Of a stretch of DNA of 64,000 bases, positions 31,325 to 58,402 are shown piece by piece. The DNA lies in contig JAFZXI010000010.1 in assembly GCA_017616855.1 (NCBI GenBank), positions 5,489-69,488 on the forward strand. Direction: 5' to 3'. The number at the start of each line of letters is the position of its first letter. The stretch's first letter is position 1. The notes beneath the pieces are model-generated. The model was not told where the DNA came from, did no database searches, and was given only the letters and a program-made list of their open reading frames with translations. Both the position numbers and the translations under genes were made by a program. The stretch comes from Clostridia bacterium. Its GTDB lineage: Bacteria > Bacillota > Clostridia > Oscillospirales > RGIG8002.

Positions 31325-31378
31325 AGTTGTTTCCTCCTATAATCTGTATTATTCCGCTGTTATGCGGCGGGCAAACGT

Positions 31379-33269: not shown

Positions 33270-33309
33270 GCTTTTCCTCCCCTCTTGTCTGAAAATGTCC
33301 TTTCACTTC

Positions 33310-33339: not shown

Positions 33340-33467
33340 ACTTTTTTATTATAACATAAATAACTTGACAGCACCGGGATATAAGAAAACAATATCGAGA
33401 GCGTAAAAGCATTCAAAAACGGCTCCCCTTTCGGGGAGCCGTTTTTCGGTTTATGCGTTTGTGCGAA

Positions 33468-36400
33468 TCAGAGCGAATCCGCAAGCTTCGCCGCGACGCG
33501 GAGGATCTGCAGAGCGTCGCCGACGGTTATCGTTCCGTCGCCGTCAACGTCGCCGGCCGCGAGCGCTTCGGGCGTTTCGGGAGCGAGCTTCGCGGCGATG
33601 CGGAGCGCGGCGAGCGCGTCCGAAACGGTTATTTCTCCGTCGCCGTCGAGGTCGCCGAGGATGACGTCTTCTTTATACGGATCCTCGTAAACGCCGCTGT
33701 CGGCGGGCAGCATAAAGAGCTTCCATCCTTCAAGAGAATCCTCGATGCAACGTCTTATATAATAGACGCCGTCGCGAGTGGCGACGCAGGAGTTATCCTG
33801 GTCGTAGCTGTCTGATATACCGTTGAATCCGGTATAGTAAAGCGGTTCGATCTCATCCGTCTCGGTGTTGTACACGAAGGCGTTGCCGCCGCCGTCAACG
33901 GACGCGTTGATAAAGAGCAGTCCGTTCTTCACGCACGTTTTGGCGTCGGAATGGTAGAGATAACCATCGAAGTCGTTGAGTCTGCCGACGTACTTCAGAT
34001 CGTCGCGCTTCTGCTCCCACTTCTCGCCGTCGAAGCAGTAAACGCCGCTTGCGACGCTCTCTTCCATCGAGAGCGAATCGTCGGTATAGAATCCGAACAT
34101 CGCGTAGAGCTTCCCGTTAGACTGCATGAAGGTGAATTCATAGATCGAGGCGGGCAGGTCTGCTTCCTTCGTCCAGGTATCCGCCGCGGGATCGTAACTG
34201 TACATCGGAAGACTGTCTTCGGTCGCTTCCTCGCTGGTATCGGTGGCGATGCAGTAGAGTTTTCCGTTATAGATTCCGGGAGTAAAACTAAAGGAAACCT
34301 CATCGTAGAACGCATCGGGCAGATCCGCCATCGGAGCGAAGTTCCAGCGGTGCGTTTCCGAATTCAAATCAAAGGTCGCAAGATACATATGATCGGGGTA
34401 GTAGTATTCGTCTTCTTCCTCGTCATATTCTTCATAGCACGCGTCGACGATAACGTAGATCACTCCGTTTTCGCAGAGCGGAATGTCGCGTTTGGCGGCG
34501 TATATTTCATAATCGTTATAAACGCTGAATCTGTCGGCGCCGTTAGCGATGAGCCATTCCTTAAATTCATCTACCATTACAGTTCTTTTGTAGGTTATGA
34601 AATATTCGCCGTTGAAATAACCGACCTCGTCCGTGTATAGGTAATAACCGTAAAGGTTTTCGCCATCGGCGTCGGTCAGCAGGTAAGGAATAGGTTCCCC
34701 CTTAATTGTGATATCAGTACCGACAAGTTCAAACTCCTTCTGCCCTCTTACGAGGAAGAAGCTCGCCTCGCCGCTGAGACCGTTAGCTCCGGTTACAACA
34801 AACTCGGTAAGGGTCGAGAAGAAGCTCTTTGCGTTGCTTATCACAAGCTTCGAGCCGTCTTCGAAGTATTCGACGGGCATATCTTCGGGAAGAGCAGTCT
34901 CTTCCGCGCCGTCGACCGCGATCCTCTTATAGGTGACCGCGCAGCCCTCGAACAGGTTCGCGCCAATCAGGGTGAGGGTTTCGTTATCAAGGTCGCAGTA
35001 AGCGTCGGAGATTGCGGGAACCGCCTCGTCAATCAGGGAAAGATCGACGTAACCGCCGGTGGAGCAAAGGTCCTTCAGTTCGTCGGTGCGTCTGACGCAG
35101 GAGAACAGCTTCGAGCGGATACGCCTCGCGTAATCGCCGCCGGACTCGCCTTCCTGCCTCGGATTGAGCGCCGCGAGCAGCGCGCCCGCGCCGCAGACGG
35201 CGGGCGTCGCCTGGGACGTGCCGGACATAAGGTCATACGAAGTGCCGGGCACAAGCTCGATATCGGGCTTGCTGATAGCGAAGGAATGAACATACATGCT
35301 GATATCGTGCGCTTCGCCTTCCGTTTCATCATCGACGTCTTCGCCATACGTATAAAAACCGAAACCGTATTCCGTTTCGGCGGTAGCGTCCGCGCTCAGT
35401 AAGAACGCGTCTCCTTGACCGTAGCTGGAAGTATGCCACACCATACCGTCGTAATCCTCTCCCGTTTTTGAGACGTAAAATCCGCAGTCAATGGACAGCA
35501 AGCCGTCGTCAGCTCTGTGAACGTCACCGCCGAGATAGCATCCTACGTATCCGTCTTCGGAAGCGATACATTCGGTGGTAATGGAGAAGTAGGTGTTGTC
35601 TCCGCCCGTAGTAAGCGAGTTCTTTTCATAAGGGAAGTAAATGTAATATCCTTCGCCGGGCTGGGCGTTTTTGACGGTGATCTTCAGACTGTATGGATTG
35701 TCGGCGTTGAAATATCTTCCGCTCTCAACGGAAAGCTCAAGATAAGCGTCGTCGGAGATTTCGTAGTCGTCGTCAAGGGATCTGAATCTCTGCTTGACGA
35801 ATACCAGGTCGCCGAACGCCTTGACGCCGTCGCCCGCTTTTGACCCGACGGAGGGAGTGATCGTGCCGTCCTTCACAACGGTATCGGCGTTGAACACACC
35901 GTAATACTCCGTGGTGTCGTTGAAAAGCTCTTCGTCGTACAGATCGGGGAAATAAACGTCGGCCGCGACGGAGGAAAGAATATTCTGCCCCGGTCCGAAA
36001 ACGTCGACTGATTTCTTGCCGTAGCAAGAGAAGGGAGTAGGCGTTCCGTTAATGTCCGCGGCTCCCACAGAGACCGCGTATTCGCTGTTGGAGTTTGAGG
36101 GGTAATCATACAGACGGTCGTTGTCGACGCCCTCGTTACCCGCGGCAATGTAGGAGATAACTCCTTCTTCACCCAGAAGGTCAATCAGGTAATCATAAAT
36201 CGTGCCGTAATAAGAACCGCCCCACGAATCGTTGATAGCGACGACGTTGACGCCGCCCAATACGGCCTTGTAGACGTAATTGTAGGCGCCGTATGTGTCA
36301 AAAAGAGAGCCGCCGCTGTATCCGTCGCCGCCCAATATTTTTATCGCCATGATCTTGACGTTCGCCTTTGAGGCGACGCCCGCGACGCCTTTGGCGTTAT

Positions 36401-37283
36401 TCGCCTGAGCCGCTATTGTACCGGAACAATGGCTGCCGTGGTCGTCATCATCCACGGGATCGTCGTCGTTATTGCAGAAGTCGAATCCGTGCTCGCCCTT
36501 GAGACCGATGTTGCCGGGATTCGTCCACATCATATCCGCCAAATCTTCATGGTCGCAGAAAACGCCCGAGTCGATGACGGCGACGACGACTTCGTCCTCC
36601 TCGCCGGTCAGTTTCGCCCAGCCGGACGCCGCGTTTATGGAAAATGCCGCTTCGGCTTCGGCTCCGCGGCCGTCAGTGTTTTTGCCGTCGACGTTCTGCG
36701 CCGCGGGAGAGTTGACGTTGAAAAGGTAGCTGTTGAGCGGATCGTTGAGCGAATAGTCGGCGTAAGACTCCTTCTTGACGCGGTAGTTCGGCTCGACGGC
36801 GAGGACGTTCTCGTCCTTGCTCAGCATCGCGATCATAGTCGCGGTATCGTATTTATCGGACGATACGAGCGCTATGCTGAAATCCTTGCCGGACGCAGCG
36901 TAAGACGGGGTTCCCTTTTTGCTGCCGCGTTTGGCGGCGCCGTCGTTGAACACCAGAGTATCCTCCAGGACGAACCCGTCGCCGAGGTTGGCGCCGATGA
37001 TGGCAATCTCGTCGTAAGCGGCGGAATACGCCTTATCTTCGGAACAGGACGCGTCCATGATCCTGCCGAAGTCCGCGCCAAGCGCGGAAAGGCCGCCCTT
37101 CTTCGGAGAAGCGCCGGAGTCTATCGCGCCGTTCTTAAACAGAACGACGACCTGCCCGGGAACGTAGGTGCCTTCGATCAGTTCGACAGGCGCCTCCGCG
37201 GGGGCTTCGTTCGCGCTCGCCGCAAACGGAAACGCGCACAGCAGCAGAGCGAACGCAAGTATCAGAGATAATGCTTTTTTCAT
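33468..37283 (-). CDS. Secreted subtilisin-like serine protease (peptidase S8) with a large insertion, a beta-propeller-like repeat region and a C-terminal dockerin
   Basis: Signal peptide. Catalytic blocks VAVIDSG (Asp), HGSHCSGTIAA (His), AAGNEG (oxyanion Asn) and MSGTSQATPAV (Ser). About 240 aa lie between GPGQNILS and the Ser block. Dockerin repeats are GDLDGDGEITVSDALAALRIAAKL and GDVDGDGTITVGDALQILRVAAKL. Confidence 0.9.
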   Translation of the reverse strand: MKKALSLILAFALLLCAFPFAASANEAPAEAPVELIEGTYVPGQVVVLFKNGAIDSGASPKKGGLSALGADFGRIMDASCSEDKAYSAAYDEIAIIGANLGDGFVLEDTLVFNDGAAKRGSKKGTPSYAASGKDFSIALVSSDKYDTATMIAMLSKDENVLAVEPNYRVKKESYADYSLNDPLNSYLFNVNSPAAQNVDGKNTDGRGAEAEAAFSINAASGWAKLTGEEDEVVVAVIDSGVFCDHEDLADMMWTNPGNIGLKGEHGFDFCNNDDDPVDDDDHGSHCSGTIAAQANNAKGVAGVASKANVKIMAIKILGGDGYSGGSLFDTYGAYNYVYKAVLGGVNVVAINDSWGGSYYGTIYDYLIDLLGEEGVISYIAAGNEGVDNDRLYDYPSNSNSEYAVSVGAADINGTPTPFSCYGKKSVDVFGPGQNILSSVAADVYFPDLYDEELFNDTTEYYGVFNADTVVKDGTITPSVGSKAGDGVKAFGDLVFVKQRFRSLDDDYEISDDAYLELSVESGRYFNADNPYSLKITVKNAQPGEGYYIYFPYEKNSLTTGGDNTYFSITTECIASEDGYVGCYLGGDVHRADDGLLSIDCGFYVSKTGEDYDGMVWHTSSYGQGDAFLLSADATAETEYGFGFYTYGEDVDDETEGEAHDISMYVHSFAISKPDIELVPGTSYDLMSGTSQATPAVCGAGALLAALNPRQEGESGGDYARRIRSKLFSCVRRTDELKDLCSTGGYVDLSLIDEAVPAISDAYCDLDNETLTLIGANLFEGCAVTYKRIAVDGAEETALPEDMPVEYFEDGSKLVISNAKSFFSTLTEFVVTGANGLSGEASFFLVRGQKEFELVGTDITIKGEPIPYLLTDADGENLYGYYLYTDEVGYFNGEYFITYKRTVMVDEFKEWLIANGADRFSVYNDYEIYAAKRDIPLCENGVIYVIVDACYEEYDEEEDEYYYPDHMYLATFDLNSETHRWNFAPMADLPDAFYDEVSFSFTPGIYNGKLYCIATDTSEEATEDSLPMYSYDPAADTWTKEADLPASIYEFTFMQSNGKLYAMFGFYTDDSLSMEESVASGVYCFDGEKWEQKRDDLKYVGRLNDFDGYLYHSDAKTCVKNGLLFINASVDGGGNAFVYNTETDEIEPLYYTGFNGISDSYDQDNSCVATRDGVYYIRRCIEDSLEGWKLFMLPADSGVYEDPYKEDVILGDLDGDGEITVSDALAALRIAAKLAPETPEALAAGDVDGDGTITVGDALQILRVAAKLADSL

Positions 37284-42009: not shown

Positions 42010-43404
42010 ATGACGGCAAAAACGGTTTTCAAGCGCGGCGCGAGGGAAAACGCGGACGCGGTCAAAGCGCTTTTCGCCGAGAATATCGACCTCGCGGAGC
42101 GAAGCGTTTGCGGCGTCGACGGGACAGAGTATCTGCTGCTTTTCCTCGACTGCTTCGCAGACAAGGACGCGCTGCAGCGCTTCGTCATACCGCCGCTCGC
42201 GGCTTCGACGGCGGAAACGCCGCCCGATTCGCTTCACGCCGCCGCGGAAGTGAAGTTTCCCTCCTCGCCCGAAGAGGCCGCGGAGCTGCTTTGCGCGGGC
42301 AGCGCCCTGCTGTTTTACGGCGGCGAAGCGCAGGCGCTCGCGCTGAAAAAGCCCGCCGACGAAACAGGAAAGGAATCCTCGCCGGAAAACATAATCCTCG
42401 GGCCGCACGCCCGCTTCGGCAACTCCTGCAAGCGCAACGTCGCGCTCCTGCGCGACTGCATACGCACGCCCGCGCTCGCTTCGGCGGAGTTTTCGCTGCA
42501 GAACGGGACGCTGACGAAGGTCGTCCTCTGCTACGTTGAAGGCGTCGCGGACGGCGGCGCCGTCGAAGCCGCGAAGAAGCGCGTATTTTCCTGCGCCGCA
42601 TCCGGCGTCGGAAGCGTGACGGAGTTCATCGAGCTTTTCAAAGAGGACCGCCTCAGCCCGTTCCCGCAGTACGTGACGTCCGAGCGTCCCGACCGCGTGA
42701 CAGAGGCGCTCCTTCGCGGCTGTGTCGCCGTGATACCGGACAGCTCGCCCTGGGCGATACTCGCGCCTGTCAGCTTCGCGGACTTCCTTAAAAGTCCGGA
42801 AGACGCACATTCACCGTGGATATACGCGAGTCTGATACGCCTGCTGCGCTTTATAAGCGTCGCGATAACGATAATCACTCCGGCTCTCTACGTCGCGGTG
42901 ATGTCGTTCCATCCGCGCATGCTGCCGGTCAAGCTCATGCTTTCGGCGGCGAGCGGGCGCGCCGCGGTGCCCCTCCCCGCGATAGCGGAGGTGGTGATAA
43001 TGGAGATATTTATCGAGCTGCTGCGCGAAGCGTCGACCTCCATGCCGTCCAACGTCGGCTCCACGATAAGCATCGTAGGCGGCATCGTGATAGGCGAAGC
43101 CGCGATTTCCGCGGGGCTCGCGAGTCCGCTGCTCGTCGTGATAATCGCGATATCCGCGATAACTTCGTTCACGATACCCGTCTATTCTATGGTTATTTCG
43201 CTGCGGACTGTGCGTTTTTTCTCGCTGCTGCTGGCAAGCGTATTCGGTTTTTACGGGCTGATAATGTCGCTTATATTCATGATAGTTCACATGGCGTCGC
43301 TGAAGAGTCTGGGGCGCGAATACCTCTTCCCCGTCGCTCCGCTGCGCCCGAAGTTGTGGAAGCGCGACGTTCTGCGGCTCCCGCTGCGCTGGACACGGGG
43401 GTGA
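42010..43404 (+). CDS. Spore germinant receptor subunit A (GerA/GerKA family)
   Basis: GerA-family architecture: soluble N-terminal domain plus C-terminal TM bundle with IGEAAISAGL-type motifs. First gene of an A-B-C operon. Confidence 0.85.
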   Translation: MTAKTVFKRGARENADAVKALFAENIDLAERSVCGVDGTEYLLLFLDCFADKDALQRFVIPPLAASTAETPPDSLHAAAEVKFPSSPEEAAELLCAGSALLFYGGEAQALALKKPADETGKESSPENIILGPHARFGNSCKRNVALLRDCIRTPALASAEFSLQNGTLTKVVLCYVEGVADGGAVEAAKKRVFSCAASGVGSVTEFIELFKEDRLSPFPQYVTSERPDRVTEALLRGCVAVIPDSSPWAILAPVSFADFLKSPEDAHSPWIYASLIRLLRFISVAITIITPALYVAVMSFHPRMLPVKLMLSAASGRAAVPLPAIAEVVIMEIFIELLREASTSMPSNVGSTISIVGGIVIGEAAISAGLASPLLVVIIAISAITSFTIPVYSMVISLRTVRFFSLLLASVFGFYGLIMSLIFMIVHMASLKSLGREYLFPVAPLRPKLWKRDVLRLPLRWTRG

Positions 43405-43408
43405 AGCG

Positions 43409-44524
43409 ATGAAAGGTCTGACTCGCAACGACGGAGTTTCGGTGACCCAGCTTTGCGTGCTGACGGCGATGGGGCTCGGCATGGGCATACCGAACGCCAA
43501 CGTAACTTATATGTCGCCCTACGGACAGGGGTTTATAACCAACTGCGCGATAGCGATATGCTTCACGCTTGTCGCGCTCGTGCCGGTAGTACTGCTCGTG
43601 AAAGCGTACCCGGGGCGTACGCTTTACGAATACTCTCCGGTGCTGCTCGGAAAGGCGGGCGGAGCCGCGCTGAACGCACTCATCGTCCTGCTCGCGATAT
43701 GGACCGCGGCGAGCGAGATACGCCCGACGATGAATATACTGCGCTCGTACCTGCTTCCGCACACGCCGGTCGCGGTAACGACGGCGCTTATGATTGCCGC
43801 GGCGTGCTACGCCGTCCGCGGAGGGGTAAACTCTATCGCGAGATGCGGCGAAGTCTTCTTCGTTATCGCGGCGGTATGCCTCGCGGTAGTTATCGCGATG
43901 GCGGCGCCGTACCTCGATTTCACCTACTTTTCGCGCCACCTGCGCTTCGCGGGAGCGGAACGCGCGTTTGAGGCGTCATTTTCCATTTTCTCCGGCTTTT
44001 TCCCGCTGTGGGCGTTGACTTTCTTCGCGCCGTTTTCGCGGAGAAAACGGCTGTTTACGCCGCTTGCGCTAACCGTGGCGTCGGCGGGCGCGGTTTTTCT
44101 GTTTATGGCGGCGGTCGTGGAGTCGGTTTTCGGCTCCGCACTCTCTACGGAGATGTTCTCGCCGCTGCTTGAATTATCGAAACTGATAGGCAGCGATTCC
44201 GGTTTGATGCCGGAGCGCTCGAATATTATTTTCATGGTATTGTATCGGCTTCTGCCGCGTTTTGTCAACTGCGCCGCGGCGCTCTGGATAGCGGCGCTCG
44301 GACTGGTATCCTTCTTCCCGAAGCTGAAGATCTCCGTTGCGGGAGCCGTCGCTTCAGCCGCCGCGTACGCGTTTCTGCTCATGCCGATGAACGACGCGCA
44401 GATGATCGCCGCCGGGCACCTTTGCGATCTCGCGCAGGTCGGATTCCTGCCCGTCGCGCTGCTGCTATTGCTTATACGGACTGTAAAGAAAAGGAGGGCT
44501 GCAAGATGCGGATACGCGGTCTGA
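43409..44524 (+). CDS. Spore germinant receptor subunit B (GerAB, APC-transporter-like, ~10 TM)
   Basis: Polytopic membrane protein immediately after the A subunit. Confidence 0.8.
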   Translation: MKGLTRNDGVSVTQLCVLTAMGLGMGIPNANVTYMSPYGQGFITNCAIAICFTLVALVPVVLLVKAYPGRTLYEYSPVLLGKAGGAALNALIVLLAIWTAASEIRPTMNILRSYLLPHTPVAVTTALMIAAACYAVRGGVNSIARCGEVFFVIAAVCLAVVIAMAAPYLDFTYFSRHLRFAGAERAFEASFSIFSGFFPLWALTFFAPFSRRKRLFTPLALTVASAGAVFLFMAAVVESVFGSALSTEMFSPLLELSKLIGSDSGLMPERSNIIFMVLYRLLPRFVNCAAALWIAALGLVSFFPKLKISVAGAVASAAAYAFLLMPMNDAQMIAAGHLCDLAQVGFLPVALLLLLIRTVKKRRAARCGYAV

Positions 44525-45624
44525 TCGCGGCGTTCGCCGCTTTACCGTTCCTCCTTTGCGGCTGCTGGGACAACGTCGACATCAGCAGGCAAAACTACGC
44601 GATGTCGCTCTGGCTCGGCGCGGACGAAAACGGCATCGACTGCCTCGTTCAATGCTGCGACCCCGTGGCATCCGCGGACGGCGACGGGACCGCCAACACA
44701 ATCGACGTCGCCGGATGCGGCGGCAACATCTCCGCGGCGCTCGCGGAAGCGACCCGCAATTCGAGCAAAACGATAACCTACGAGCACCTTCAGCTCATTG
44801 TTATCGACAAATCGCTCTATAAAGAATACGCTTCGGAATGCATGGCGTATTTCCTGCGCTCCGCCGACGTGCAGAAGACCGTCGACGTCGTGATAAGCGG
44901 AGACGATCCCGCAGCGATGTTTGAGATAAAGCCGGCGGGCGAAGCGTTTTACGAATACGTTACCGGCCTGCTCGCCTCGGATATCCCGTCGGAATCGCGG
45001 CTGATCGGCGGCTCCTCCCTGCTCGTCGCCTGCCGCGCCGAAAAGGACGGCCACGCGTTTTTTCTTAACAAAATACGCTATGATGAGGATGCCGAAACTA
45101 TCCTGACCGACGGAGTCGGAGTCTTTTCAAACGGCGGATTCGTCGGAGAGATTTCCGCTGACGAATGGGAGTATTTCCGGCTTTTTGAAAAGCGTGATAC
45201 GGAGTTCAACGTCAACTGCGACGTCGCCGGATACGGCAGCAATATGGGCTTTCGCTGCATTTCGAGCCGCTGCCGGCTTTTCGCCGAGCAGACGGACTGC
45301 GGCTTCGCGCTCCGCGCTGTGACCGAAGCGAGCTTCACGCTGAGCGAACAGCCGCAGGGCGACGCGCGCACCGCGCTTGACCGCGGTTTCTACCCCGCCG
45401 CCGAGGACGCGCTCCGCCGCGAAGTGAAACGCAGGTGCGAAGCGCTCGCTTTCATCGCGCAGAAGCGGCTGCGCGCGGATTTCATCGGCTTCGGAAAAGC
45501 CGCCGAGGATTCCTGTCCGGACTGGTGGGAGGAAAACCGTGAAAAATGGGACGAGGTCTTCGCCTCGTCCCCGATAAGCTTCGATATAACCTGCTCCGTC
45601 ATTTCCGGCGGCGACGCTAAGTAG
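44506..45624 (+). CDS. Spore germinant receptor subunit C lipoprotein (Ger(x)C family)
   Basis: Lipobox LLCGC followed by WD..D. Start ATG 44506 with AAAGGAGGG. Overlaps the end of the B subunit. Confidence 0.8.
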   Translation: MRIRGLIAAFAALPFLLCGCWDNVDISRQNYAMSLWLGADENGIDCLVQCCDPVASADGDGTANTIDVAGCGGNISAALAEATRNSSKTITYEHLQLIVIDKSLYKEYASECMAYFLRSADVQKTVDVVISGDDPAAMFEIKPAGEAFYEYVTGLLASDIPSESRLIGGSSLLVACRAEKDGHAFFLNKIRYDEDAETILTDGVGVFSNGGFVGEISADEWEYFRLFEKRDTEFNVNCDVAGYGSNMGFRCISSRCRLFAEQTDCGFALRAVTEASFTLSEQPQGDARTALDRGFYPAAEDALRREVKRRCEALAFIAQKRLRADFIGFGKAAEDSCPDWWEENREKWDEVFASSPISFDITCSVISGGDAK

Positions 45625-46821: not shown

Positions 46822-46895
46822 AGTTTTAATTCCCGCCTTTCGCGGATATTATACCATACGTCAGCGAAAAACGGAAGATAATTTATAAAAAACTA

Positions 46896-46924
46896 TTGAC
46901 AACCCCGCTTTTCTGTGCTAAAAT
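46896..46924 (+). promoter_or_regulatory. SigA-type promoter: TTGACA-17 nt-TAAAAT
   Basis: Consensus -35 at 46896-46901 and -10 at 46919-46924, directly upstream of the T-box leader. Confidence 0.65.
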
Positions 46925-46939
46925 CCCAACATATTCAAA

Positions 46940-47194
46940 GGCAACGAAGAGGAGTAGTACCCCGCACCTTCGGAGCATAGAGAGCGGCGGACGGTGGAAG
47001 CGCCGCGTTCGGAAGCGGGTGAAGTAGCCTCGGAGCCGCGGATCGAACGGCGCAAAGCGCTCATTAGTCTCCGCTGCGGACCGCCGCCGCATTACCAAAG
47101 GGCACGGAGTTTTTGCTCCGGATGAGTGCGTGCTTCGGCACGAATTCGGGTGGTACCGCGCTGATGCGTCCCGGCTGTATGGCCGGGCTTTTTT
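46940..47194 (+). promoter_or_regulatory. T-box riboswitch leader, apparent specifier GUA (Val)
   Basis: - K-turn and lower helix GGC..GAGG / CCTC..GCC.
- Specifier loop: AGTAGTA on the 5' side, GAA-GTA-G on the 3' side (47021-47027).
- AG bay AGAGAG (46979-84).
- Distal loop GGTGGAA (46993-99).
- T-box sequence aattcGGGTGGTACCGCG (47143-60).
- Terminator cccggc/gccggg plus T6 (47168-94). Confidence 0.8.
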
Positions 47195-47221
47195 ATTGTC
47201 ATTTCTTTTTCGGAGGCAGCT

Positions 47222-48865
47222 ATGCTGGAAAAATTCATCAACAGAATCGAGTACGACTCCTACGAGGACTTCAAGACGAATTACGCCGTCACCTGCTCCG
47301 AGGATTTCAACTTCGCGACGCACGTCATCGACGAATGGGCGCGCACCGAACCGAACCGCCGCGCGCTCGTCTGGTGCAACGACGAAGGCGAGAGCCGCGA
47401 GTTCACCTTCGGCGAGATCTCCGAGCTTTCCAAAAAGGCGGCGTCCTACCTCGTCTCGCTCGGCATCGGCAAAGGCGACATGGTCGTTACGATTCTTCGC
47501 CGCCGTCCCGAAATGTGGATAACCGCCGTCGCGCTCCACCGCATAGGCGCGGTGCTTATCCCCGCCAACTACCAGCTCGCCGCCAAGGACCTTATATATC
47601 GTTTCAACTCCGCGCACGCGAAGATGGTCATCGCCGCCGAGGACGAATGGATAATCAAGCAGGTCGAAGACGCCGCGGCGCAGTGCCCGTCGGTCAAAAA
47701 CCTTCTGCTCGTCGGCGGCAAACGCGAGGGCTGGCTCGACTACCGCGAAGGCATCGCGAACGCGAAGCCCGATTATGTCGTCAACCCCGACATAAAGCTG
47801 ACCGACCCGATGCTGCTCTATTTCACGAGCGGCACCTCCGGCATGCCGAAGATGGTCGTGCATAACTACCGCTACCCGCTCGGCCATATCGTGACAGCGA
47901 AATACTGGCAGCAGGTCGTCGACGGCGGTCTGCACCTGACGAACGCCGACTCCGGCTGGGCGAAGTTCGCCTGGGGCCTTATCTACGGCCAGTGGATCTC
48001 CGGCACCGCACTGCTCGGCTACGATCAGGGCAACAAGTTCTCCGCCGCGAAGTTCCTCGACGTCATACGCACCTTCAAGCCCACCACCGTCTGCGTGCCG
48101 GGCACGATATACCGCTTCCTCATCGTCGAGGGATTGAAAAAAGAAGATTTCGCCTCCGTCGTCCACTGCTGCACCGCGGGCGAGCCGCTCGCTCCGGAAA
48201 TTATCACCGAATTCAAGCAGGAAACCGGTCTTGAGATACACGAGGGCTTCGGACAGTCCGAAAGCAGCGTGCTGATTGCGAATTTCCAATGGTTCAAGCC
48301 GAAATACGGCTCGACCGGCAAGCCCTCCCCCGTCTACGACCTTGCGATATGCAACGACGACGGCTCGGAATGCGGCGTCGGCGAAGTCGGCGAGCTGGTC
48401 GTCCGCAACGCGAAGAAGGACAACCCCTTCGGTCTGCTCTGCGGCTACTACGACGGCGAAAAGATAATCGACCACTGCGACGAAAACGGCCGCTACCACA
48501 CCGGCGACCTCGCCTGGAAGGACGAGGACGGGCACATCTGGTTCGTCGGGCGCAACGACGATATGATAAAATGCTCCGGCTACCGCATCGGACCCTTTGA
48601 GATCGAAAGCGTGCTGCTTTCGCACCCTGCGGTCAAGGAATGCGCAATCACCGGCGCTCCCGATCCGCTGCGCGGGCAGGTCGTCAAGGCGTCCATCGTG
48701 CTCCACAAGGGCTACGAAGGCACCGACGAGCTGACGAAGGAACTCCAGACCTACGTCAAGAAGATGACCGCGCCTTATAAATACCCGCGAATCGTCTGCT
48801 ATATGGACGCGCTCCCCAAAACCGTCACCGGCAAGATAAACCGCAAAGCGATACGCAACGAATAG
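47222..48865 (+). CDS. AMP-forming acyl-CoA synthetase, medium/short branched-chain (ACSM/MacS-like) family
   Basis: YFTSGTSGMPKMV AMP-binding motif. GYRIGPFEIES, TAPYKYPR and LPKTVTGKI blocks closely resemble ACSM-type ligases. Confidence 0.85.
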   Translation: MLEKFINRIEYDSYEDFKTNYAVTCSEDFNFATHVIDEWARTEPNRRALVWCNDEGESREFTFGEISELSKKAASYLVSLGIGKGDMVVTILRRRPEMWITAVALHRIGAVLIPANYQLAAKDLIYRFNSAHAKMVIAAEDEWIIKQVEDAAAQCPSVKNLLLVGGKREGWLDYREGIANAKPDYVVNPDIKLTDPMLLYFTSGTSGMPKMVVHNYRYPLGHIVTAKYWQQVVDGGLHLTNADSGWAKFAWGLIYGQWISGTALLGYDQGNKFSAAKFLDVIRTFKPTTVCVPGTIYRFLIVEGLKKEDFASVVHCCTAGEPLAPEIITEFKQETGLEIHEGFGQSESSVLIANFQWFKPKYGSTGKPSPVYDLAICNDDGSECGVGEVGELVVRNAKKDNPFGLLCGYYDGEKIIDHCDENGRYHTGDLAWKDEDGHIWFVGRNDDMIKCSGYRIGPFEIESVLLSHPAVKECAITGAPDPLRGQVVKASIVLHKGYEGTDELTKELQTYVKKMTAPYKYPRIVCYMDALPKTVTGKINRKAIRNE

Positions 48866-48873
48866 TAATGAAA

Positions 48874-48950
48874 GCCCCGTTTTCCGAAATGAAAACGGGG
48901 TTGATTTTTATATGAAAACAGGCGCGCTGCGGCGCGTCTTTTTTTATCAC
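48874..48950 (+). terminator. Two successive rho-independent terminators
   Basis: ccccgtttt/aaaacgggg plus a T-run, then a GC stem (gcgcgc...gcgcg) plus T7. Confidence 0.7.
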
Positions 48951-49010: not shown

Positions 49011-49034
49011 TCGAGGTGAACGGAGGTGTTTTTT

Positions 49035-51194
49035 ATGTTCACCGCAAAAGACCACGCTGACTATATAATCAGCTTTATAAATACCTACCGCGAGCACGAG
49101 AACGCGCCGCGCGGCGAGCGCGAGCTTGCCTGCCTGCGCGTGTTCGCCTCCGCTTTTTTCCTGCCGTTTGACGACGAGGACATCTTCGCCGGACGCTACC
49201 GCGAGCTCGCCGTCGGCTTCACGCCGCAGGAGCACGAATACAACGGCTATTACATGTATGATAAAAAGGTCGAAGCCGTCGCCGCCGAGGTCGACGCCGA
49301 AACGCGCGAAAAGCTGCGCGAGGCGGCGGACTGGTTCCGCGACAGGACGACCGTCGCGAAAACTATCGCCGCCTACCCGGAAAAGATCACCTCGCTGCTG
49401 CCGCCGATGGCGGACTACGAGGACGCCGCTTCCCTGCTCTATCGCATCGGCGGCACCTTCCCCGACTACGAAAAGCTCGTCACGCTTGGCATCCCCGGGC
49501 TGAAAGCCGAGATAACCGCACGCGCCGCTCAGGGCGGCGACGCGGACTTTTTCGGCTCAATGCTCGGCGCGCTCGATCTGCTCGCCGAAGTCGCGTTAAG
49601 CTGCGCCGAAGCCGCTCGCGCCGCCGGCAAGGACGAGATGGCGGCTTCCTGCGAAGGCATCGCCGCGCACGCGCCCGCGAACATGCACGAGGCGCTGCAG
49701 CTCATCACGCTTTTCGCCCACCTTTCCGGCAACCTCGACTACGGGCGGCTGGACGACATTCTCGCCCCCTTCGCCTACGGAGTCGACGACGAGGAGATAA
49801 TACGCCTGCTGATCGGGTTTTACCGCCTTATCGTTTTCCGCGGCTGGATATGGGACGGCCGCGTGGTCGTCGGCGGACGCGCGCGCAAGCACGAAAAGAC
49901 CGCCGACCGCGTCGCGCTGCTCGCTATCGAGGCGAGCCGCCGTTACCGCGAGGTGCTCCCGCAGCTCACGCTCCGCTTTTACGACGGGCAGGATCCCGCG
50001 CTGCTCGAAAAAGCGTTCGACAACTTCGCCGACGGATACATCTATCCGATGCTCTATTCCGACGATGTGAATATCCCCGCGGTCGAAAAGTCCTTCGGCG
50101 TCGACCGCGAAACCGCCGAGCATTATATGCCATTCGGCTGCGGTGAATATGTGCTCGAGCACTGCTCGCTCGGCACCCCGAGCGGCACGATAAATCTGCT
50201 GAAAGTGCTCGAAGCGACGCTCTTCGACGGGCGCGACATACGGCGCGGGAAGCAAATACTGCCGAAACGCGGGTTTCACGATTTCGAGAGCTTATTCACC
50301 GCGTATTCCGCGAACGTCGATATGCTGATGGAAGCGCTCGCGCTGCAGGAAAAGATTGAATACGACGTCATGGGCGCGGACGCGCATCTGCTCTATTATT
50401 CAATGCTTTACGACGACTGCATCGAGCGCGGAAAGCCGCTGCTTTCCGGCGGCGTGCGCTACCTCGGCGGCACGATGGAGTCTTACGGCAATATCAACAC
50501 CGCGGACAGTCTGACCGCGATAAAATCTGTCGTCTACGACCGCAAACTCGCCACGCTCGACGAGCTGAAGGCCGCGCTCGCCGCGGACTTCAAGGGTTAC
50601 GAAGACCTGCGCCGCGTTCTTCTCGCCTGCCCGAAATACGGCAACGATGACGACGAGGCGGACGCGATGGCTGTCCGCGTTCACGAGCAGGTCTGCGCCA
50701 GCGCGAACGCGCAAACCGAGAAGGTCGGGCTGCACACCTACAAGGTCGTCATAATCAACAACTCGATGAATACGACGATGGGCGTGCTGACCGGCGCCTC
50801 CGCCGACGGACGCGGCGCCTGCGATCCGATGGCGAACGGCAACAACCCCATGGGCGGGCGCGACAAGAGCGGCCCCACCGCGATGCTGAACTCCCTGACG
50901 AAGCTCGATCCGTCGCTCCACGCAGGCGCGGTGCAGAACATGAAGTTCACGACCGAGATGTTCAACAAATACCGCGAGAAGACGAAGGCGCTGCTCGCCG
51001 CCTATTTCAAAAAAGGACAGCAGGCGATGCTGAACGTGCTGAACAAGGGCGACCTCGAGGACGCGCTCGTGCATCCGGAGAAATACCCCGATCTGATAGT
51101 CCGCGTCGGCGGCTTCGCGGCGCGGTTCGTGGAGCTCGATCCCGACGTTCAGCGCGAGATCGTTTCGAGGACGCTTTATGGGAACGATAATTAG
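49035..51194 (+). CDS. Glycyl radical enzyme (PFL2/dehydratase-lyase type), unusually short, substrate unknown
   Basis: C-terminal glycyl radical motif IVRVGGFAARF. Cys loop PFGCGEY (Cys-x-Glu). PKYGNDDDEAD, ASADGRGACDPMANG and GPTAMLNS blocks. Start ATG 49035 (GGAGG 8 nt upstream). Confidence 0.85.
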   Translation: MFTAKDHADYIISFINTYREHENAPRGERELACLRVFASAFFLPFDDEDIFAGRYRELAVGFTPQEHEYNGYYMYDKKVEAVAAEVDAETREKLREAADWFRDRTTVAKTIAAYPEKITSLLPPMADYEDAASLLYRIGGTFPDYEKLVTLGIPGLKAEITARAAQGGDADFFGSMLGALDLLAEVALSCAEAARAAGKDEMAASCEGIAAHAPANMHEALQLITLFAHLSGNLDYGRLDDILAPFAYGVDDEEIIRLLIGFYRLIVFRGWIWDGRVVVGGRARKHEKTADRVALLAIEASRRYREVLPQLTLRFYDGQDPALLEKAFDNFADGYIYPMLYSDDVNIPAVEKSFGVDRETAEHYMPFGCGEYVLEHCSLGTPSGTINLLKVLEATLFDGRDIRRGKQILPKRGFHDFESLFTAYSANVDMLMEALALQEKIEYDVMGADAHLLYYSMLYDDCIERGKPLLSGGVRYLGGTMESYGNINTADSLTAIKSVVYDRKLATLDELKAALAADFKGYEDLRRVLLACPKYGNDDDEADAMAVRVHEQVCASANAQTEKVGLHTYKVVIINNSMNTTMGVLTGASADGRGACDPMANGNNPMGGRDKSGPTAMLNSLTKLDPSLHAGAVQNMKFTTEMFNKYREKTKALLAAYFKKGQQAMLNVLNKGDLEDALVHPEKYPDLIVRVGGFAARFVELDPDVQREIVSRTLYGNDN

Positions 51195-51981
51195 CATCGA
51201 GCGATTTTCGCTCAACGACGGGCCGGGCATACGCACAACGGTATTTTTAAAGGGCTGCCCGCTTAACTGCCTCTGGTGCCACAACCCCGAATCGAAAAAG
51301 CCGCGCCCGCAGCTCTCTTTCAATCCCGACGCCTGCGTCGGATGCGGAAGGTGCGCGGAGGTCTGCCCCTGCGGAGTTCACTCCTTCGCGGACGAACACA
51401 AAGTCGATTTCGCCGCGTGCAGCGCGTGCGGAAAATGCGTCGGCGTCTGCCCCGCGGGCGCGCTGAAGATATACGGATACGACGCCTCCGCCGAGGAGAT
51501 AATGAAGACAGTTCTGCGCGACAGGGCGTATTACGAGACCTCCGGCGGCGGGCTGACCGTTTCCGGCGGCGAGCCGACGATGCAGTTCGGATTCCTCAAG
51601 GAACTGCTGACGCTCGCGAAGCGCGAAGGGATACACACCGCGGTCGAGACCTGCGGCTTTGCACCGACGGAACGCTTCGCGGAGCTTCTGCCGCTTTGCG
51701 ACCTTTTCCTTTACGACCACAAGGCGCCGGCGGAGCTGCACGAAAAGCTGACCGGCGTTCCCGACGAGCTGATAGTGAAAAATCTCGCCTTCCTGCTCGA
51801 CAGCGGCGCGAAGGTCATCCTGCGCTGCCCGGTCGTCGACGGCGTCAACGGCACGAACGAGCGGCGGCGCGCGTTCGCCGCGCGGTTCCCGAAGCTGCTC
51901 GCGGTTGAGGAGCTCCCCTACCACGACCTCGGCAGAACGAAAGCGAAGCGCATCGGCGTTGATTATCCCGATTTCAAATAG
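51178..51981 (+). CDS. Glycyl-radical enzyme activating protein (radical SAM)
   Basis: CPLNCLWCHN radical-SAM cluster and two ferredoxin-type CxxCxxCxxxC motifs. GGEPT. 17-nt overlap with the GRE gene. Confidence 0.9.
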   Translation: MGTIISIERFSLNDGPGIRTTVFLKGCPLNCLWCHNPESKKPRPQLSFNPDACVGCGRCAEVCPCGVHSFADEHKVDFAACSACGKCVGVCPAGALKIYGYDASAEEIMKTVLRDRAYYETSGGGLTVSGGEPTMQFGFLKELLTLAKREGIHTAVETCGFAPTERFAELLPLCDLFLYDHKAPAELHEKLTGVPDELIVKNLAFLLDSGAKVILRCPVVDGVNGTNERRRAFAARFPKLLAVEELPYHDLGRTKAKRIGVDYPDFK

Positions 51982-53931: not shown

Positions 53932-54854
53932 ATCTTATCCCCCATCGCGACGCAGATCGCCGCGTAGTCTCCGAGCTGTTCGCCGAGCGCGGCGGGAAGA
54001 ATCCGAACGACCTCGAGCGAGCGCGGGATCGCCTCGCGGCGCAGGACGCGCTCCATAGCGGGAAGGAGCAACTCTCCGCTGCGCGCGAAAATCGAGCCGA
54101 GGACGATGCGCTCGGGATTGAACAGGTCGACGAGCATCGCGAGCGCCGCGCCGAGCTTTTCTCCGCTGACGCGCCAGACCTCGAGCGCCGTTTCGTCGCC
54201 GGCGAACGCCGCGGCGGCGACGCTTTTCGCGTCGCAGTTATCCGGATACCACGCGGGTTTGACGGAGGCGCTTTCCGCGACGGACGCGGCGAGCTGTTTT
54301 ATCCCGCCGCCGCTGCAGAAGCCCTCGCATGAGCCGGCTTTGCCGAAGCCGACCGGACCTTCGTGTTCGAGCCGTACGTGCCCGATCTCGCCCGCCATAT
54401 CGTTAGTGCCGGAGTAGAGCCGCCCGTCGAGGATCAGCCCCGCGCCGAAGCCGGTGCCGCAGGTCAGGAAGATCATGTTTTCGCAGCCGCGCCCCGCGCC
54501 GTAACGCCATTCGGCGAGCGCGCAGGCGTTCGCGTCGTTCTGCAGGCGCACAGGCACGCCGTAACGCTTCTCAAGCATTTCGACGATCGGCACGTCGGTC
54601 CACAGCGGCAGGTTCGGCGGAGCGAGTATCCTGCCCGTTTTCGACGAGAGCGGGCCTCCGCAGGAGACGCCTATGCCGTCGAACGCGCCCAGACCGTCCA
54701 GAATCGCGCAGAATCGCTCTATTACGTTTTCCGGGGGTTCGTTTACGTCCGTTTCAAAGCGTTCCTTAGAAAGAAATCTGACGCTTTCTCCGTTCACTTC
54801 CCCCAATGTGACGGCGCATTTCGTGCCGCCGATATCAATTCCCGCGTATCTCAT
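53928..54854 (-). CDS. ROK-family sugar kinase
   Basis: N-terminal ATP-binding motif GIDIGGTK and later ROK blocks (GAGLILDG, GEIGH). Confidence 0.8.
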   Translation of the reverse strand: MRYAGIDIGGTKCAVTLGEVNGESVRFLSKERFETDVNEPPENVIERFCAILDGLGAFDGIGVSCGGPLSSKTGRILAPPNLPLWTDVPIVEMLEKRYGVPVRLQNDANACALAEWRYGAGRGCENMIFLTCGTGFGAGLILDGRLYSGTNDMAGEIGHVRLEHEGPVGFGKAGSCEGFCSGGGIKQLAASVAESASVKPAWYPDNCDAKSVAAAAFAGDETALEVWRVSGEKLGAALAMLVDLFNPERIVLGSIFARSGELLLPAMERVLRREAIPRSLEVVRILPAALGEQLGDYAAICVAMGDKI

Positions 54855-54855
54855 A

Positions 54856-57102
54856 TCATTTCTCCGGTATCAGGCCCGCCTTGCGCATCAGCGAGGCGTA
54901 TTTTTCGGGATCGAACGGCGGATCGCCGTGGAGGTAGTGATTGACGCCATGTCTGCCGGACGTCAGTCCGCTCGAGCGGTAGTCCCATTCGAGCAGGTAG
55001 ACCTCGCCCTTTTCGGCGGCGGGGAGCTTGCAGACGGGAATGCTCGAATTGTAGGCGACCGCGATGCGTCCCTCGGTCAGCGTTCTGCCGCTGCCTACGT
55101 CGCTGACGCGGTATTCGGCGTAGGATTCGTTCTCGGTATTGTTTATCACGCGCAGGGTCATTTCGTCGTCAATAAGCAGGCAGAGCGGCTGCTGCAGGCG
55201 CTTGATGAAGTCGTAGGCGAGGCGCCTGTCGAGGTCGTAGCCGACGACGGCGTTATCGAACTGCGGCCAGCCGTCGAGCAGGTTCCACCAGAGGATGCCG
55301 GTGCGGCGCCACTTCTGCGCGAGGAAGACCTCGATGAAATGCTTCATCGCCTCCGCCTGCGAGACCTGGCTCGCGAAGACGAAGTCCTCGAGCGTTTCAG
55401 GCGTTCTGCCGAAGATGTAGTTCGCCTGCGCGTTCAGGCGTTGATTGCAAAGCGGATCGGGCTCGCGCCACGTATCCGTCGAGTGGGTTATCCACTGGCT
55501 GCCCGTTCTGTCGTCTATCGCGTCGGGAGTGATGAAACGGCGCACGGACTCCGCCGACGGGCTGCCGTAGTATCCGATCTCGCTGACGAAGTTCGCGACG
55601 GCGTTTTTGTAAAACTCCGAGCGATAGTAGTCGCGCGGACCCCAGAGGTGGTTTTCGGGGCAGAGATGCGTGCCCTTTTCGACGCATTCGCGGTCGAAAT
55701 ACGGCGAGGACGGGATATAAACGCGCGAACGGTCAAGCCGCGCGATGACGTCGGGAAGCACTCCGCGCGTCAGGGCGTTGTCTTCGGGGTCGAGCTGACC
55801 GTCGTACCATTCGCGGCGGATCGCGTCGCCCTCGTTATCGCCCGCCCAGACGATCAGGCAGGGGTGGTTGCGGAGGCGGCGGACCTGGTATTCCGCTTCG
55901 CGCCGGAGGTTCGCTTTGAACTCATCCGTTTCGGGATAGACGGCGCACGCCATCATGAAATCCTGCCAGACGGCGATGCCGTGCTCGTCGCAGAAATCGT
56001 AAAACGCGTCGTCTTCGTATATGCCGCCGCCCCAGACGCGGACGGTGTTGCAGTTCAGGTCTTCGAGCAGGTCGAGCGCGACCGGAAGCCGCTCCGAACA
56101 GCGCGAAAGCACCGCGTGCGCGGGGACGTGGTTCGTGCCGAGGCAGAACATTTTGTTGCCGTTTATCTTAAAGCAGAACTCGCCGCTCCCCTGCGCGTCC
56201 GTTACGGAGGTGCGGTCGAGCGTCGCTGTGCGGATGCCGGCTTTCAGCGTCTTCGTTTCGACGGTTTCGCCGCCGCGGACGAGCTCGACCTTCACGTCAT
56301 AAAGATTGGGCTTGCCCATGCCCTTCGGCGCCCAGAGCATCGGGTCTGGGACGTCGATATCGACTCCGCCTGCGCCGGCGGGCGCGGAAGCGCGGAAGGC
56401 GCTTCTGCCGCAGGCGCCGGAGACGACGACTTCGCCGCCTTCTTCGGTCTCGTATTCGACGCGGACGACCGCCTTGCGCCAGACGACCTCTTTCGTGTAG
56501 AAATACACGCTCTTTATCAGTTCGGGCGTTTTATTCACGAGCGAAACGCCTTTAAAAATCGCGCCGCACATCAGCCGCGGGAAGATGTCCCAGCCGTGTG
56601 TGAACGGCGGCTTGCGGAGGGTCACGGCGCCGTCGCGGTAATACGGCAGGCCGTATTCCCACGCGGCGGGGGCGGCGTCCTCGAGCACCGCCGATGGCAG
56701 GATGTGCACGAGCAGCTCGTTTTTGCCCTCGCGGACGCCTTCGGCGGCGAACTCGTGCGGAATAAAAGCGTTATCCGTTTCGCCGAGCTTCACGCCGTTG
56801 AGGAAGACTTCGGCGACGGTGTCGACGCCGTCGAAGCGCAGCGTCGGGACACCCTCCGCGGGCGTGTAGTCGAAAGTGCGCGCGTACCACAGGTGCTTGC
56901 GCTCGTACGCCTGCGCCTTCAGCACGTTATCGCCGACGAAAAGCTCCGGCAGCACGCCGATGCGCTCGAGTGTCGCCTCCAGCGTTTCCGGTATCAGCGC
57001 GGTCAGCGGTTTTATGGCGGAAAGCTCCGCTTCTGTTTTGACATCAAGCGGTGCGTCGCTCATATAGAGGCGCCATTCGCCGTTAAGGTCGATAATTCGC
57101 AT
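54856..57102 (-). CDS. Glycoside hydrolase family 2, beta-mannosidase-like
   Basis: NTVRVWGGGIYEDDAFYDFCDEHGIAVWQDFMMAC and WAGDNEG (acid/base Glu) blocks. The start is taken at ATG 57102 (GGAG upstream). Confidence 0.75.
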   Translation of the reverse strand: MRIIDLNGEWRLYMSDAPLDVKTEAELSAIKPLTALIPETLEATLERIGVLPELFVGDNVLKAQAYERKHLWYARTFDYTPAEGVPTLRFDGVDTVAEVFLNGVKLGETDNAFIPHEFAAEGVREGKNELLVHILPSAVLEDAAPAAWEYGLPYYRDGAVTLRKPPFTHGWDIFPRLMCGAIFKGVSLVNKTPELIKSVYFYTKEVVWRKAVVRVEYETEEGGEVVVSGACGRSAFRASAPAGAGGVDIDVPDPMLWAPKGMGKPNLYDVKVELVRGGETVETKTLKAGIRTATLDRTSVTDAQGSGEFCFKINGNKMFCLGTNHVPAHAVLSRCSERLPVALDLLEDLNCNTVRVWGGGIYEDDAFYDFCDEHGIAVWQDFMMACAVYPETDEFKANLRREAEYQVRRLRNHPCLIVWAGDNEGDAIRREWYDGQLDPEDNALTRGVLPDVIARLDRSRVYIPSSPYFDRECVEKGTHLCPENHLWGPRDYYRSEFYKNAVANFVSEIGYYGSPSAESVRRFITPDAIDDRTGSQWITHSTDTWREPDPLCNQRLNAQANYIFGRTPETLEDFVFASQVSQAEAMKHFIEVFLAQKWRRTGILWWNLLDGWPQFDNAVVGYDLDRRLAYDFIKRLQQPLCLLIDDEMTLRVINNTENESYAEYRVSDVGSGRTLTEGRIAVAYNSSIPVCKLPAAEKGEVYLLEWDYRSSGLTSGRHGVNHYLHGDPPFDPEKYASLMRKAGLIPEK

Positions 57103-57157
57103 AAGTATCTCCTCGGTATTCAAAAGCGGCGGACAAACGAATGCCCGCCGCCGTTTT

Positions 57158-58402
57158 TTATCCTTCCCAGCTGTCGAGATACGCCTTCTGAGCGTCGGTC
57201 AGGCGGTCGTATTCGATGCCGAGCGCCTTCAGCTTGGCGTTGGCGACCGCGACGTCGATCTCAGCGGGGACGCCGATGACGCCGGGCTTCAGCTCATCCT
57301 TGTGCTTCAGTACGTACTCGGCGGAAAGCGCCTGCAGCGCGAAGCTCAGGTCCATTATCTCGGCGGGGTGTCCGTCGCCCGCGGCGAGGTTGACGAGGCG
57401 GCCTTCGGCGATGACGTTGACGGTCCTGCCGTTCTTCAGCGTGTAGCCCATGATATTGTTGCGGCGCAGCTCCTTCTTGACCGCAATCTTTTCGAGCTCC
57501 GCGACCGCGACTTCGACGTCGAAGTGGCCCGCGTTGCACATAATCGCGCCGTCCTTCATAAGCGCGAAATGCTCCGCGCTGATGACGTCGCGGCAGCCGG
57601 TGACGGTGACGAAGAAGTCGCCGACCTTGGCGGCCTTCGCCATCGGCATGACCTCGAAGCCGTCCATATACGCCTCGATCGCCTTTATCGGATCGACCTC
57701 GGTCACGACGACCTTCGCGCCGAAGCCCTTGGCGCGCATCGCGACGCCCTTGCCGCACCAGCCGTAGCCGGCGACGACGACGGTCTTGCCCGCGACGATG
57801 AGGTTCGTCGTGCGGTTGATGCCGTCCCAGACGGACTGGCCGGTGCCGTAGCGGTTATCGAAAAGGTATTTGCACTGCGCGTTGTTGACGGCGATCATCG
57901 GGAACTTGAGCTCCCCGGCCTTCGCCATCGCTTTGAGGCGGACGATGCCGGTGGTGGTCTCCTCACAGCCGCCGTAGACGTTCGGAAGCAGGTCGGTGCG
58001 CTTTGTATGCACCATGTGCACGAGGTCTCCGCCGTCGTCGATAATGATATTCGGACCGTGGTCGAGCGCCGCTTCGATGTGGGTGGCGTACTCCTCGGGC
58101 GTGGCATTGTAGAAGGCGAAGGTCTCGATGCCCTTTGAAACGAGCGCGGCGGCGACGTCGTCCTGCGTCGAAAGCGGGTTGCTGCCGGTCGCGCGGATGT
58201 CCGCGCCGCCCGCGGCGAGCACGGTCACGAGGTAGGCGGTCTTGGCTTCAAGATGCACCGAAAGCGTGACCTTTGTGCCGGCGAAGGGGCGTTCTTTTAT
58301 AAAGCGTTCCTCGATGGAACGGAGCAGCGGCATGTTGCTGCGCACCCAGTCGATTTTGCGGAGTCCGCTGTCTTTGAGTTCGATATCTCTGATAATTGAC
58401 AT
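57158..58402 (-). CDS. ahcY: Adenosylhomocysteinase
   Basis: Characteristic N-terminus (IDWVRSNMPLL) and NAD-binding VVAGYGWCGKG. Confidence 0.9.
   Translation of the reverse strand: MSIIRDIELKDSGLRKIDWVRSNMPLLRSIEERFIKERPFAGTKVTLSVHLEAKTAYLVTVLAAGGADIRATGSNPLSTQDDVAAALVSKGIETFAFYNATPEEYATHIEAALDHGPNIIIDDGGDLVHMVHTKRTDLLPNVYGGCEETTTGIVRLKAMAKAGELKFPMIAVNNAQCKYLFDNRYGTGQSVWDGINRTTNLIVAGKTVVVAGYGWCGKGVAMRAKGFGAKVVVTEVDPIKAIEAYMDGFEVMPMAKAAKVGDFFVTVTGCRDVISAEHFALMKDGAIMCNAGHFDVEVAVAELEKIAVKKELRRNNIMGYTLKNGRTVNVIAEGRLVNLAAGDGHPAEIMDLSFALQALSAEYVLKHKDELKPGVIGVPAEIDVAVANAKLKALGIEYDRLTDAQKAYLDSWEG

Follow-up and report, generated by a model that had tools for sequence, protein, structure and literature searches.

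A predicted valine-specific T-box riboswitch precedes a Macs/MbcS-like acyl-CoA synthetase gene in a rumen Clostridia genome: a possible entry to valine synthesis from isobutyrate

Since the 1960s, branched short-chain acids, or isoacids, have been recognised as growth factors for rumen microbes and as precursors of their amino acids, and they are fed to cattle; one of them, isobutyrate, is abundant in the rumen. In rumen organisms, isobutyrate is a precursor of valine and 2-methylbutyrate a precursor of isoleucine (PMC7356843; PMC10658910). Among the enzymes that activate such acids, Macs from Methanosarcina acetivorans prefers 2-methylbutyrate, adenylates C3-C8 acids in its first step, and has in its pocket a glycine that replaces the pocket tryptophan of acetyl-CoA synthetase, the alternative tryptophan being Trp259 (PMC10455477). 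MbcS from Staphylococcus aureus activates 2-methylbutyrate and isobutyrate, is poor with isovalerate and butyrate, and has a product that feeds lipid primers (PMC10026030). We found no account of the physiological role or regulation of Macs in the accessible literature, and 'T-box' is not mentioned in the MbcS literature that we searched. Here we analyse a 64-kb stretch of contig JAFZXI010000010.1 from a Clostridia bacterium (the window), in which a T-box leader stands directly before the gene of a predicted enzyme of this type. On the evidence of model alignment, fold and comparison with relatives, this leader is predicted to be a canonical transcriptional T-box riboswitch specific for tRNA-Val(UAC). 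We propose, with a probability of about 0.65, that valine shortage induces the activation of isobutyrate for reductive carboxylation to valine.

A first, sequence-only reading of the window had proposed a consensus promoter followed by a complete T-box, with an AG bay, a distal loop, the conserved T-box sequence and a terminator before the ribosome-binding site. All these elements were recovered, and at the places proposed (Table 1). The match to the Rfam model covers its full length and begins about 10 nucleotides (nt) downstream of the promoter, and the Rfam scan detected no second T-box elsewhere in the 64 kb. A profile built from related leaders also recognised the window leader (nhmmer E 1.5e-45), and the homologous leaders scored 96-108 bits on RF00230. 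In support of the predicted structure, RNAalifold analysis of 10 leaders gave 19 base pairs in Stem I, 10 of them with compensatory changes. The segment 47140-47176 folded at -10.4 kcal/mol into two helices that flank a 7-nt bulge, UGGUACC, and the terminator folded at -15.1 kcal/mol (z -2.4). Since both structures use the CCCGG at 47170-47174, which is the 3' arm of the antiterminator and the 5' arm of the terminator, they are mutually exclusive. Note that the 25 nt from the T run to the GGAGG/ATG are too short for a second promoter. Downstream, the ligase gene is followed by two terminators and then by a new consensus promoter at 48983; thus, it is monocistronic.

The covariance-model alignment placed GUA in the specifier position, in agreement with the valine specifier first proposed. 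Covariation fixes the boundary of the specifier loop, and with it the reading register: the base pair just 3' of the purine that follows the triplet is G-C in the window, but five relatives have A-U at this place and another has C-G, with one C-A mismatch among the 10 aligned leaders. In all 10, the triplet is GUA or GUC, both of which are valine codons. A register shifted by -1 would read AGU (serine) and one shifted by +1 would read UAG or UCA; both were rejected, since the helix boundary covaries, the triplet varies between the synonymous GUA and GUC, and relatives show the link to valS described below. Compared with the RF00230 consensus, the window leader is without one spacer nucleotide between the GAA and the triplet. 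At the other end of the leader, the model alignment and the fold confirmed the UGGU bulge, from which a tRNA with discriminator A73 had been expected. Such a discriminator is called for because the bulge is UGGU. The 64-kb window encodes no tRNA-Val, its tRNAs being those for Ala, Gln, His and Arg only. A related contig that carries the same T-box-ligase unit (locus L072) encodes a tRNA-Val(UAC) ending in A73-CCA, which matches both GUA and UGGU. The same contig contains a second, weak T-box-like match (L072 16931-17057) before a gene for a PALP-domain (pyridoxal-phosphate) enzyme.

The product of the regulated gene contains the domains AMP-binding (PF00501) and AMP-binding_C (PF13193) and the catalytic motifs SGTSGMPK, YHTGD and PKTVTGK, with the A10 lysine included. 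Its closest solved structure is that of Macs (3ETC; E 1.8e-176, 47.5% identity over the full length), and human ACSM2A is the third PDB match. Together with the monocistronic unit, these matches bear out the suggestion that an ACSM/MacS-like ligase is the only gene under the control of the leader. The best NCBIfam model was that of MbcS (NF047394). Since the score of 402.8 bits is far under the equivalog cut-off of 850, we regard the ligase as a relative of MbcS and not as its orthologue; it reaches the equivalog cut-off of no NCBIfam model. Both pocket markers of Macs are kept: the glycine of EGFGQSE and the tryptophan of TAKYW (W229) align with EGFGQTE and TAKYW of 3ETC, on the assumption that residue numbers in the PDB chain are shifted by one, so that Trp259 of Macs is the tryptophan of TAKYW. 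The G+C content at third codon positions (GC3) is 0.83 in the ligase frame vs 0.58 in the open reading frame (ORF) on the opposite strand, and this antisense ORF of 607 amino acids (aa) (46883-48706, - strand) was rejected as spurious for its low GC3.

Many close homologues of the ligase (60-63% identity) are proteins of about 725-735 aa with a C-terminal GNAT acetyltransferase domain (P0025, P0027, P0031-P0033, P0037, P0039, P0040, P0043, P0045, P0046, P0054 and P0092), and one such fusion, at L069 4001-6187, also stands behind a Val (GUA) T-box. The GNAT domain could serve the self-regulation of the ligase by lysine acylation, or it could transfer acyl groups. Acylation-based control of Acs is known from Pat and AcuA.

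Table 1. Features of the T-box-ligase unit in the window, and T-boxes located before ligase homologues in other loci
Feature	Position or locus	Strand	Basis and remarks
Sigma-70-type promoter TTGACA-17-TAAAAT, TG preceding the -10 hexamer	46896..46924	+	Promoter scan, 11/12 matches
T-box leader RNA, Rfam RF00230, full length	46935..47176	+	93.5 bits, gathering 93, E 3.6e-19, model positions 1-219
Stem I with GA (K-turn) motif, specifier loop, AG bay and distal loop	46941..47036	+	Rfam model alignment
AG bay AGAGAG	46979-46984	+	
Distal loop GGTGGAA	46993-46999	+	
Specifier flanks	GAA 47021-47023; purine G47027; helix CCUC 47028-47031	+	GAA-GUA-G-CCUC loop 47021-47031
Specifier triplet GUA (valine)	47024..47026	+	Rfam model alignment, specifier columns
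Antiterminator	47146..47174	+	Model alignment and fold
Conserved T-box sequence GGGUGGUACCGCG (GGGTGGTACCGCG site)	47148-47160	+	Model alignment
UGGU bulge, predicted partner of the tRNA 3' end ACCA	47151-47154	+	
Intrinsic terminator	47170..47194	+	Terminator scan; stem CCCGGC...GCCGGG at 47170-47187, T run 47189-47194
Ribosome-binding site GGAGG	47212..47216	+	Read from sequence; ATG (47222) 5 nt downstream
Macs/MbcS-like AMP-forming short branched-chain acyl-CoA synthetase (predicted), 547 aa, sole gene of the unit	47222..48865	+	Pfam, NCBIfam and PDB comparison
Two intrinsic terminators closing the transcription unit	48873..48939	+	Terminator scan
GUA (Val) T-box before ligase homologue	L001, L024, L028, L032, L036, L040		
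GUC (Val) T-box before ligase homologue	L034, L037, L049		
AUC (Ile) T-box before ligase homologue	L044, L046, L048, L051, L052		All Anaerotruncus

The link between T-box and ligase recurs in other genomes. A homologue scan of limited sampling, with one genome per species, yielded 65 loci (numbered with the prefix L), roughly 63 of them valid, and T-boxes upstream of the ligase homologues were sought by pattern, nhmmer profile and Rfam searches. Apart from that of L043, described below, the T-boxes found before ligase homologues carried valine or isoleucine specifiers (Table 1), and no leucine specifier was seen. One of these loci (L001) comes from a goat-rumen metagenome-assembled genome (MAG) of the window organism itself or of a close relative, and another (L052) from Anaerotruncus colihominis DSM 17241, whose genome is complete. 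The leaders of L036 and L040, which carry the variant T-box sequence GGTGGTAAC, were picked up by the nhmmer profile. In eight further lineages with 60-66% protein identity, including Angelakisella massiliensis, Candidatus Spyradocola, a Christensenellaceae MAG and a ligase-GNAT fusion, a GUA T-box lies directly before the ligase in every case (8/8). In a neighbour-joining tree (no support values), the window ligase is sister to a clade with a directly attached Val T-box, and the Ile-linked Anaerotruncus ligases form a separate clade.

The valine specificity of the leader, as originally proposed, gains support from L024, L028 and L032. In these three loci, valS (1271 bits, NCBIfam) begins 14 nt after the ligase gene, and a Val leader with the same GAA-GUA-G loop as that of the window heads the ligase-valS pair.

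A second type of control was seen in this family. An XRE-type helix-turn-helix and cupin regulator of about 180-200 aa is encoded directly upstream of the ligase in 38 of the roughly 63 valid loci (among L002-L062, e.g. L052, regulator at 2402-2995), and it occurs among L076-L140 as well; the stop codon of one gene often overlaps the start codon of the next. The clade with the directly attached T-box, the window included, is without this regulator, and judging from gene order it looks as if the protein regulator had been replaced by the RNA switch there. Both T-box and regulator are present in Anaerotruncus, L049 and L137. In L043, a gut MAG, the leader before the regulator-ligase pair (2107-2296) scored 56.6 bits, is missing most of Stem I and allows no specifier to be assigned; a further weak, partial T-box match lies upstream of it (1789-1893).

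The sequence-only reading had also offered, as a possibility, a route from isobutyrate to valine, for which genes of a 2-oxoisovalerate:ferredoxin oxidoreductase (VOR) were to be expected. Such genes were found beside ligase homologues in relatives but not in the 64-kb window, where tblastn revealed no VOR, XRE-cupin regulator or valS and family searches no ilv or aminotransferase gene. In L010, L012, L035 and L065 (three Oscillospiraceae MAGs and one Lentisphaerales MAG), vorB and the genes for the beta and gamma subunits lie directly upstream of the ligase on the same strand, and VorB scored 534-537 bits on NF005507, with a cut-off of 399. As a check for bias, metagenome contigs were scanned by VorB similarity alone, with the ligase playing no part in the selection. 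Among the 30 VorB-selected loci of at least 8.5 kb, 12 contained a Macs-like ligase within 4 kb and six contained two ligases. The recurring gene order was (regulator-ligase), P-loop NTPase, vorB, beta, gamma, (regulator-ligase), and in six VorB-selected loci the cluster also included ilvE, the gene of the branched-chain aminotransferase (468 bits for the L137 copy vs a cut-off of 307).

In the VorB-selected loci (L076-L154), the vor genes often stand between two distinct regulator-ligase modules (e.g. L106 478-8694), with one ligase about 51% identical to that of the window and the other about 45%, and the paired paralogues may serve different acids. A conserved P-loop NTPase gene lies directly before vorB; its product gave weak CbiA/ParA/NUBPL-like matches and may help in iron-sulfur cluster maturation.

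In two contigs, a T-box precedes the oxidoreductase itself. In L137, a promoter and an Ile T-box (98.6 bits, AUC) with its terminator are followed by the genes for the regulator, the ligase, the P-loop NTPase, VorB, the beta and gamma subunits, IlvE and an amidohydrolase. These genes share one strand, and the gaps that separate them are short and contain no strong terminator. In L092, an Ile T-box (AUC by model alignment) stands directly before the vor genes gamma, delta, alpha and beta. Since induction on isoleucine shortage makes sense only if VOR and IlvE run in the biosynthetic direction, this arrangement points to that direction. The route from isobutyrate to valine has thus gained substantial comparative support, in the Val/Ile-only specifiers, the adjacency of vorB, beta and gamma, the clusters with ilvE, and these two contigs.

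According to our proposal, when valine is plentiful, charged tRNA-Val would be unable to stabilise the antiterminator, the terminator would form and transcription would end before the ligase gene. When valine is scarce, the anticodon of uncharged tRNA-Val would pair with the GUA specifier and its free ACCA end with the UGGU bulge. The antiterminator would thereby be stabilised and the ligase gene transcribed. The ligase would then, most likely, convert isobutyrate, ATP and CoA into isobutyryl-CoA; a VOR, presumably encoded elsewhere in the genome, would reductively carboxylate this ester to 2-oxoisovalerate, and a branched-chain aminotransferase would turn the latter into valine. The T-box-ligase unit would be the starvation-induced entry step of a route from isoacids to branched-chain amino acids. 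This order of steps is proposed because AMP-forming ligases run towards the CoA ester and because VOR and IlvE are predicted to be induced on isoleucine shortage. The RNA anatomy, the specifier, the enzyme family and the regulatory and genomic associations conserved among relatives were shown here; the acid used by the ligase, the direction in which VOR runs, the occurrence of VOR and IlvE in this genome and the leader's response to tRNA are what we infer.

Several points weigh against this proposal. The window T-box exceeds the Rfam gathering score by just 0.5 bit, and its specifier is followed by G, while the nucleotide after a T-box specifier is more usually A. The ligase scores well under the MbcS cut-off and is only 47.5% identical to Macs, so that its substrate could differ; it and its T-box-linked homologues are known here from their sequences. 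The 64-kb window contains no VOR, ilvE, ilv, valS or tRNA-Val gene, and the rest of the pathway is assumed. The evidence that joins a T-box to VOR comes from two metagenome contigs, both with Ile and not Val specifiers, and the L092 leader, at 73.6 bits, is under the Rfam threshold and has C instead of a purine after the triplet. Finally, isobutyryl-CoA could equally feed lipid synthesis.

This last possibility is the alternative that survives best, and we consider it unlikely. With the switch and the enzyme activity unchanged, isobutyryl-CoA made from external isobutyrate would prime the synthesis of iso-even branched-chain fatty acids; induction on valine shortage would spare the valine that would otherwise be broken down for primer, and such a role may coexist with a biosynthetic one. 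Ruminococci do incorporate isobutyrate into lipids, which counts in its favour. The clusters are formally compatible with it, since branched acyl-CoA can be reached by way of IlvE and VOR as well as through the ligase. Moreover, MbcS, the best-scoring curated family, has precisely such a role in S. aureus (PMC10026030). However, in L137 and L092 the Ile T-box precedes VOR, and in L137 ilvE as well; both loci weigh against a supply of lipid primers because inducing the degradation of a scarce amino acid would be counterproductive. In addition, the co-transcription with valS points to the supply of Val-tRNA, and no fatty-acid synthesis genes (fabH and others) were present beside the ligase among the annotated neighbour families.

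We hold it improbable, more so than a supply of lipid primers, that the ligase acts on some other small acid, for example propionate, butyrate or a substituted acid such as a hydroxy acid, with an indirect link to valine such as the removal of an inhibitor or a general supply of CoA esters in starvation. The failure of the ligase to reach any equivalog cut-off would fit such a substrate, as would the C-terminal GNAT domain on many homologues and the C3-C8 range of the first step of Macs (PMC10455477). Against it, the Val/Ile-only specifiers match the two acids preferred by Macs and MbcS, and the family repeatedly adjoins a VorB-type oxidoreductase and ilvE. Very improbable, in our view, is a historical accident, in which a valS leader was left on the ligase gene by a rearrangement and has no adaptive meaning: a shared origin with the valS leader is plausible because the same leader type precedes ligase-valS in L024, L028 and L032, but more than 10 lineages have kept the leader before monocistronic ligases while the proteins diverged to 50-66% identity, Ile T-boxes occur in a clade of their own, and the leaders retain an intact, covarying structure.

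Returning to valine-controlled activation of isobutyrate, we extend it tentatively, and at somewhat less than even odds, beyond the window. For a large group of gut and rumen Clostridia, mostly uncultured (relatives of Oscillospiraceae and of Christensenellaceae), external isobutyrate and 2-methylbutyrate might be the main sources of valine and isoleucine, by way of a dedicated, tRNA-controlled pathway of three steps. These would be a Macs-like ligase, as the long-missing activating enzyme, a VorB-type oxidoreductase working in reverse, and IlvE. The T-boxes and the XRE-cupin regulator would be alternative or stacked controls, and the paired ligases that flank vor would be separate substrate channels.

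Directly downstream of the ligase unit and under its own promoter at 48983, a glycyl-radical enzyme of 722 aa (PFL2/glycerol-dehydratase subfamily, under every equivalog cut-off) is encoded together with its activase (49026-51981). At 30353-37283 (- strand), dockerin type I domains occur in two predicted proteins, of which one is a subtilase of 1271 aa; they suggest a cellulosome-like surface system in this MAG of a spore-forming rumen member of the Clostridia. A GerA/GerB/GerC germination operon lies at 42010-45624. Between the dockerin-bearing subtilase and an IS3-family transposase, we found a match to Gut-1 RNA (RF01706, 37558-37629, - strand; 53.6 bits vs a gathering score of 50), a small RNA known from gut metagenomes. 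An 868-aa ORF (54673-57279, + strand) was considered as valS, given the ligase-valS pairs of relatives, and rejected as spurious, having no NCBIfam match and a low GC3 vs the antisense gene of the GH2 family. The two long antisense ORFs, of 607 and 868 aa, have GC3 values of 0.58-0.62 vs 0.81-0.83 in the true frames. They are artefacts, since third codon positions are rich in G+C, and an automatic gene caller could mis-annotate them.

In the searchable literature, including T-box surveys and databases, no mention was found of an acyl-CoA synthetase or VOR associated with a T-box, although tables of TBDB or RegPrecise may list the association uncommented. Likewise, the searchable literature yielded no dedicated activating enzyme, no ligase-VOR-IlvE cluster and no tRNA-dependent control for the isoacid route. 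As an RNA, the leader is typical of its family; the class of the regulated gene and the proposal, at the level of genes, for isoacid assimilation appear to be new. By placing a gene under a switch that senses tRNA, the cell states directly that this gene serves to supply one amino acid. The Val/Ile T-boxes and the ligase-VOR-IlvE clusters therefore turn a family of anonymous 'AMP-binding proteins' into a testable candidate for isoacid activation, with cultured carriers in Angelakisella massiliensis (Val) and Anaerotruncus colihominis (Ile). The list of gene classes under T-box control is extended, and the T-box-ligase unit would be a marker for predicting isoacid dependence from genomes.

How, then, does this locus compare with the systems already described? 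With the valS T-boxes of the Bacillus type, the window leader shares Stem I (GA motif, specifier loop, AG bay and distal loop), Stems II to III, an antiterminator with a UGGN bulge, and a terminator that competes with it. The specifier of B. subtilis valS is GUA as well, and a homologous leader does precede valS in three relatives of the window. The difference lies in the target, since the first and only gene regulated in the window is that of an acyl-CoA synthetase, which is neither an aminoacyl-tRNA synthetase nor a classical biosynthesis gene or transporter. Macs (3ETC) shares full-length similarity and both pocket features with the window ligase, but the latter is bacterial, has a predicted substrate and is placed under amino-acid (tRNA) control. 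The acid range of MbcS, which covers isobutyrate and 2-methylbutyrate and extends poorly to isovalerate, mirrors the specifiers found upstream of the ligase family, which are Val and Ile and never Leu. Finally, the reductive carboxylation described in rumen anaerobes and methanogens by Allison and co-workers is the same chemistry as we propose, from isobutyrate to valine and from 2-methylbutyrate to isoleucine. That work was physiological and based on labelling, whereas the route proposed here starts from genes and their regulation.

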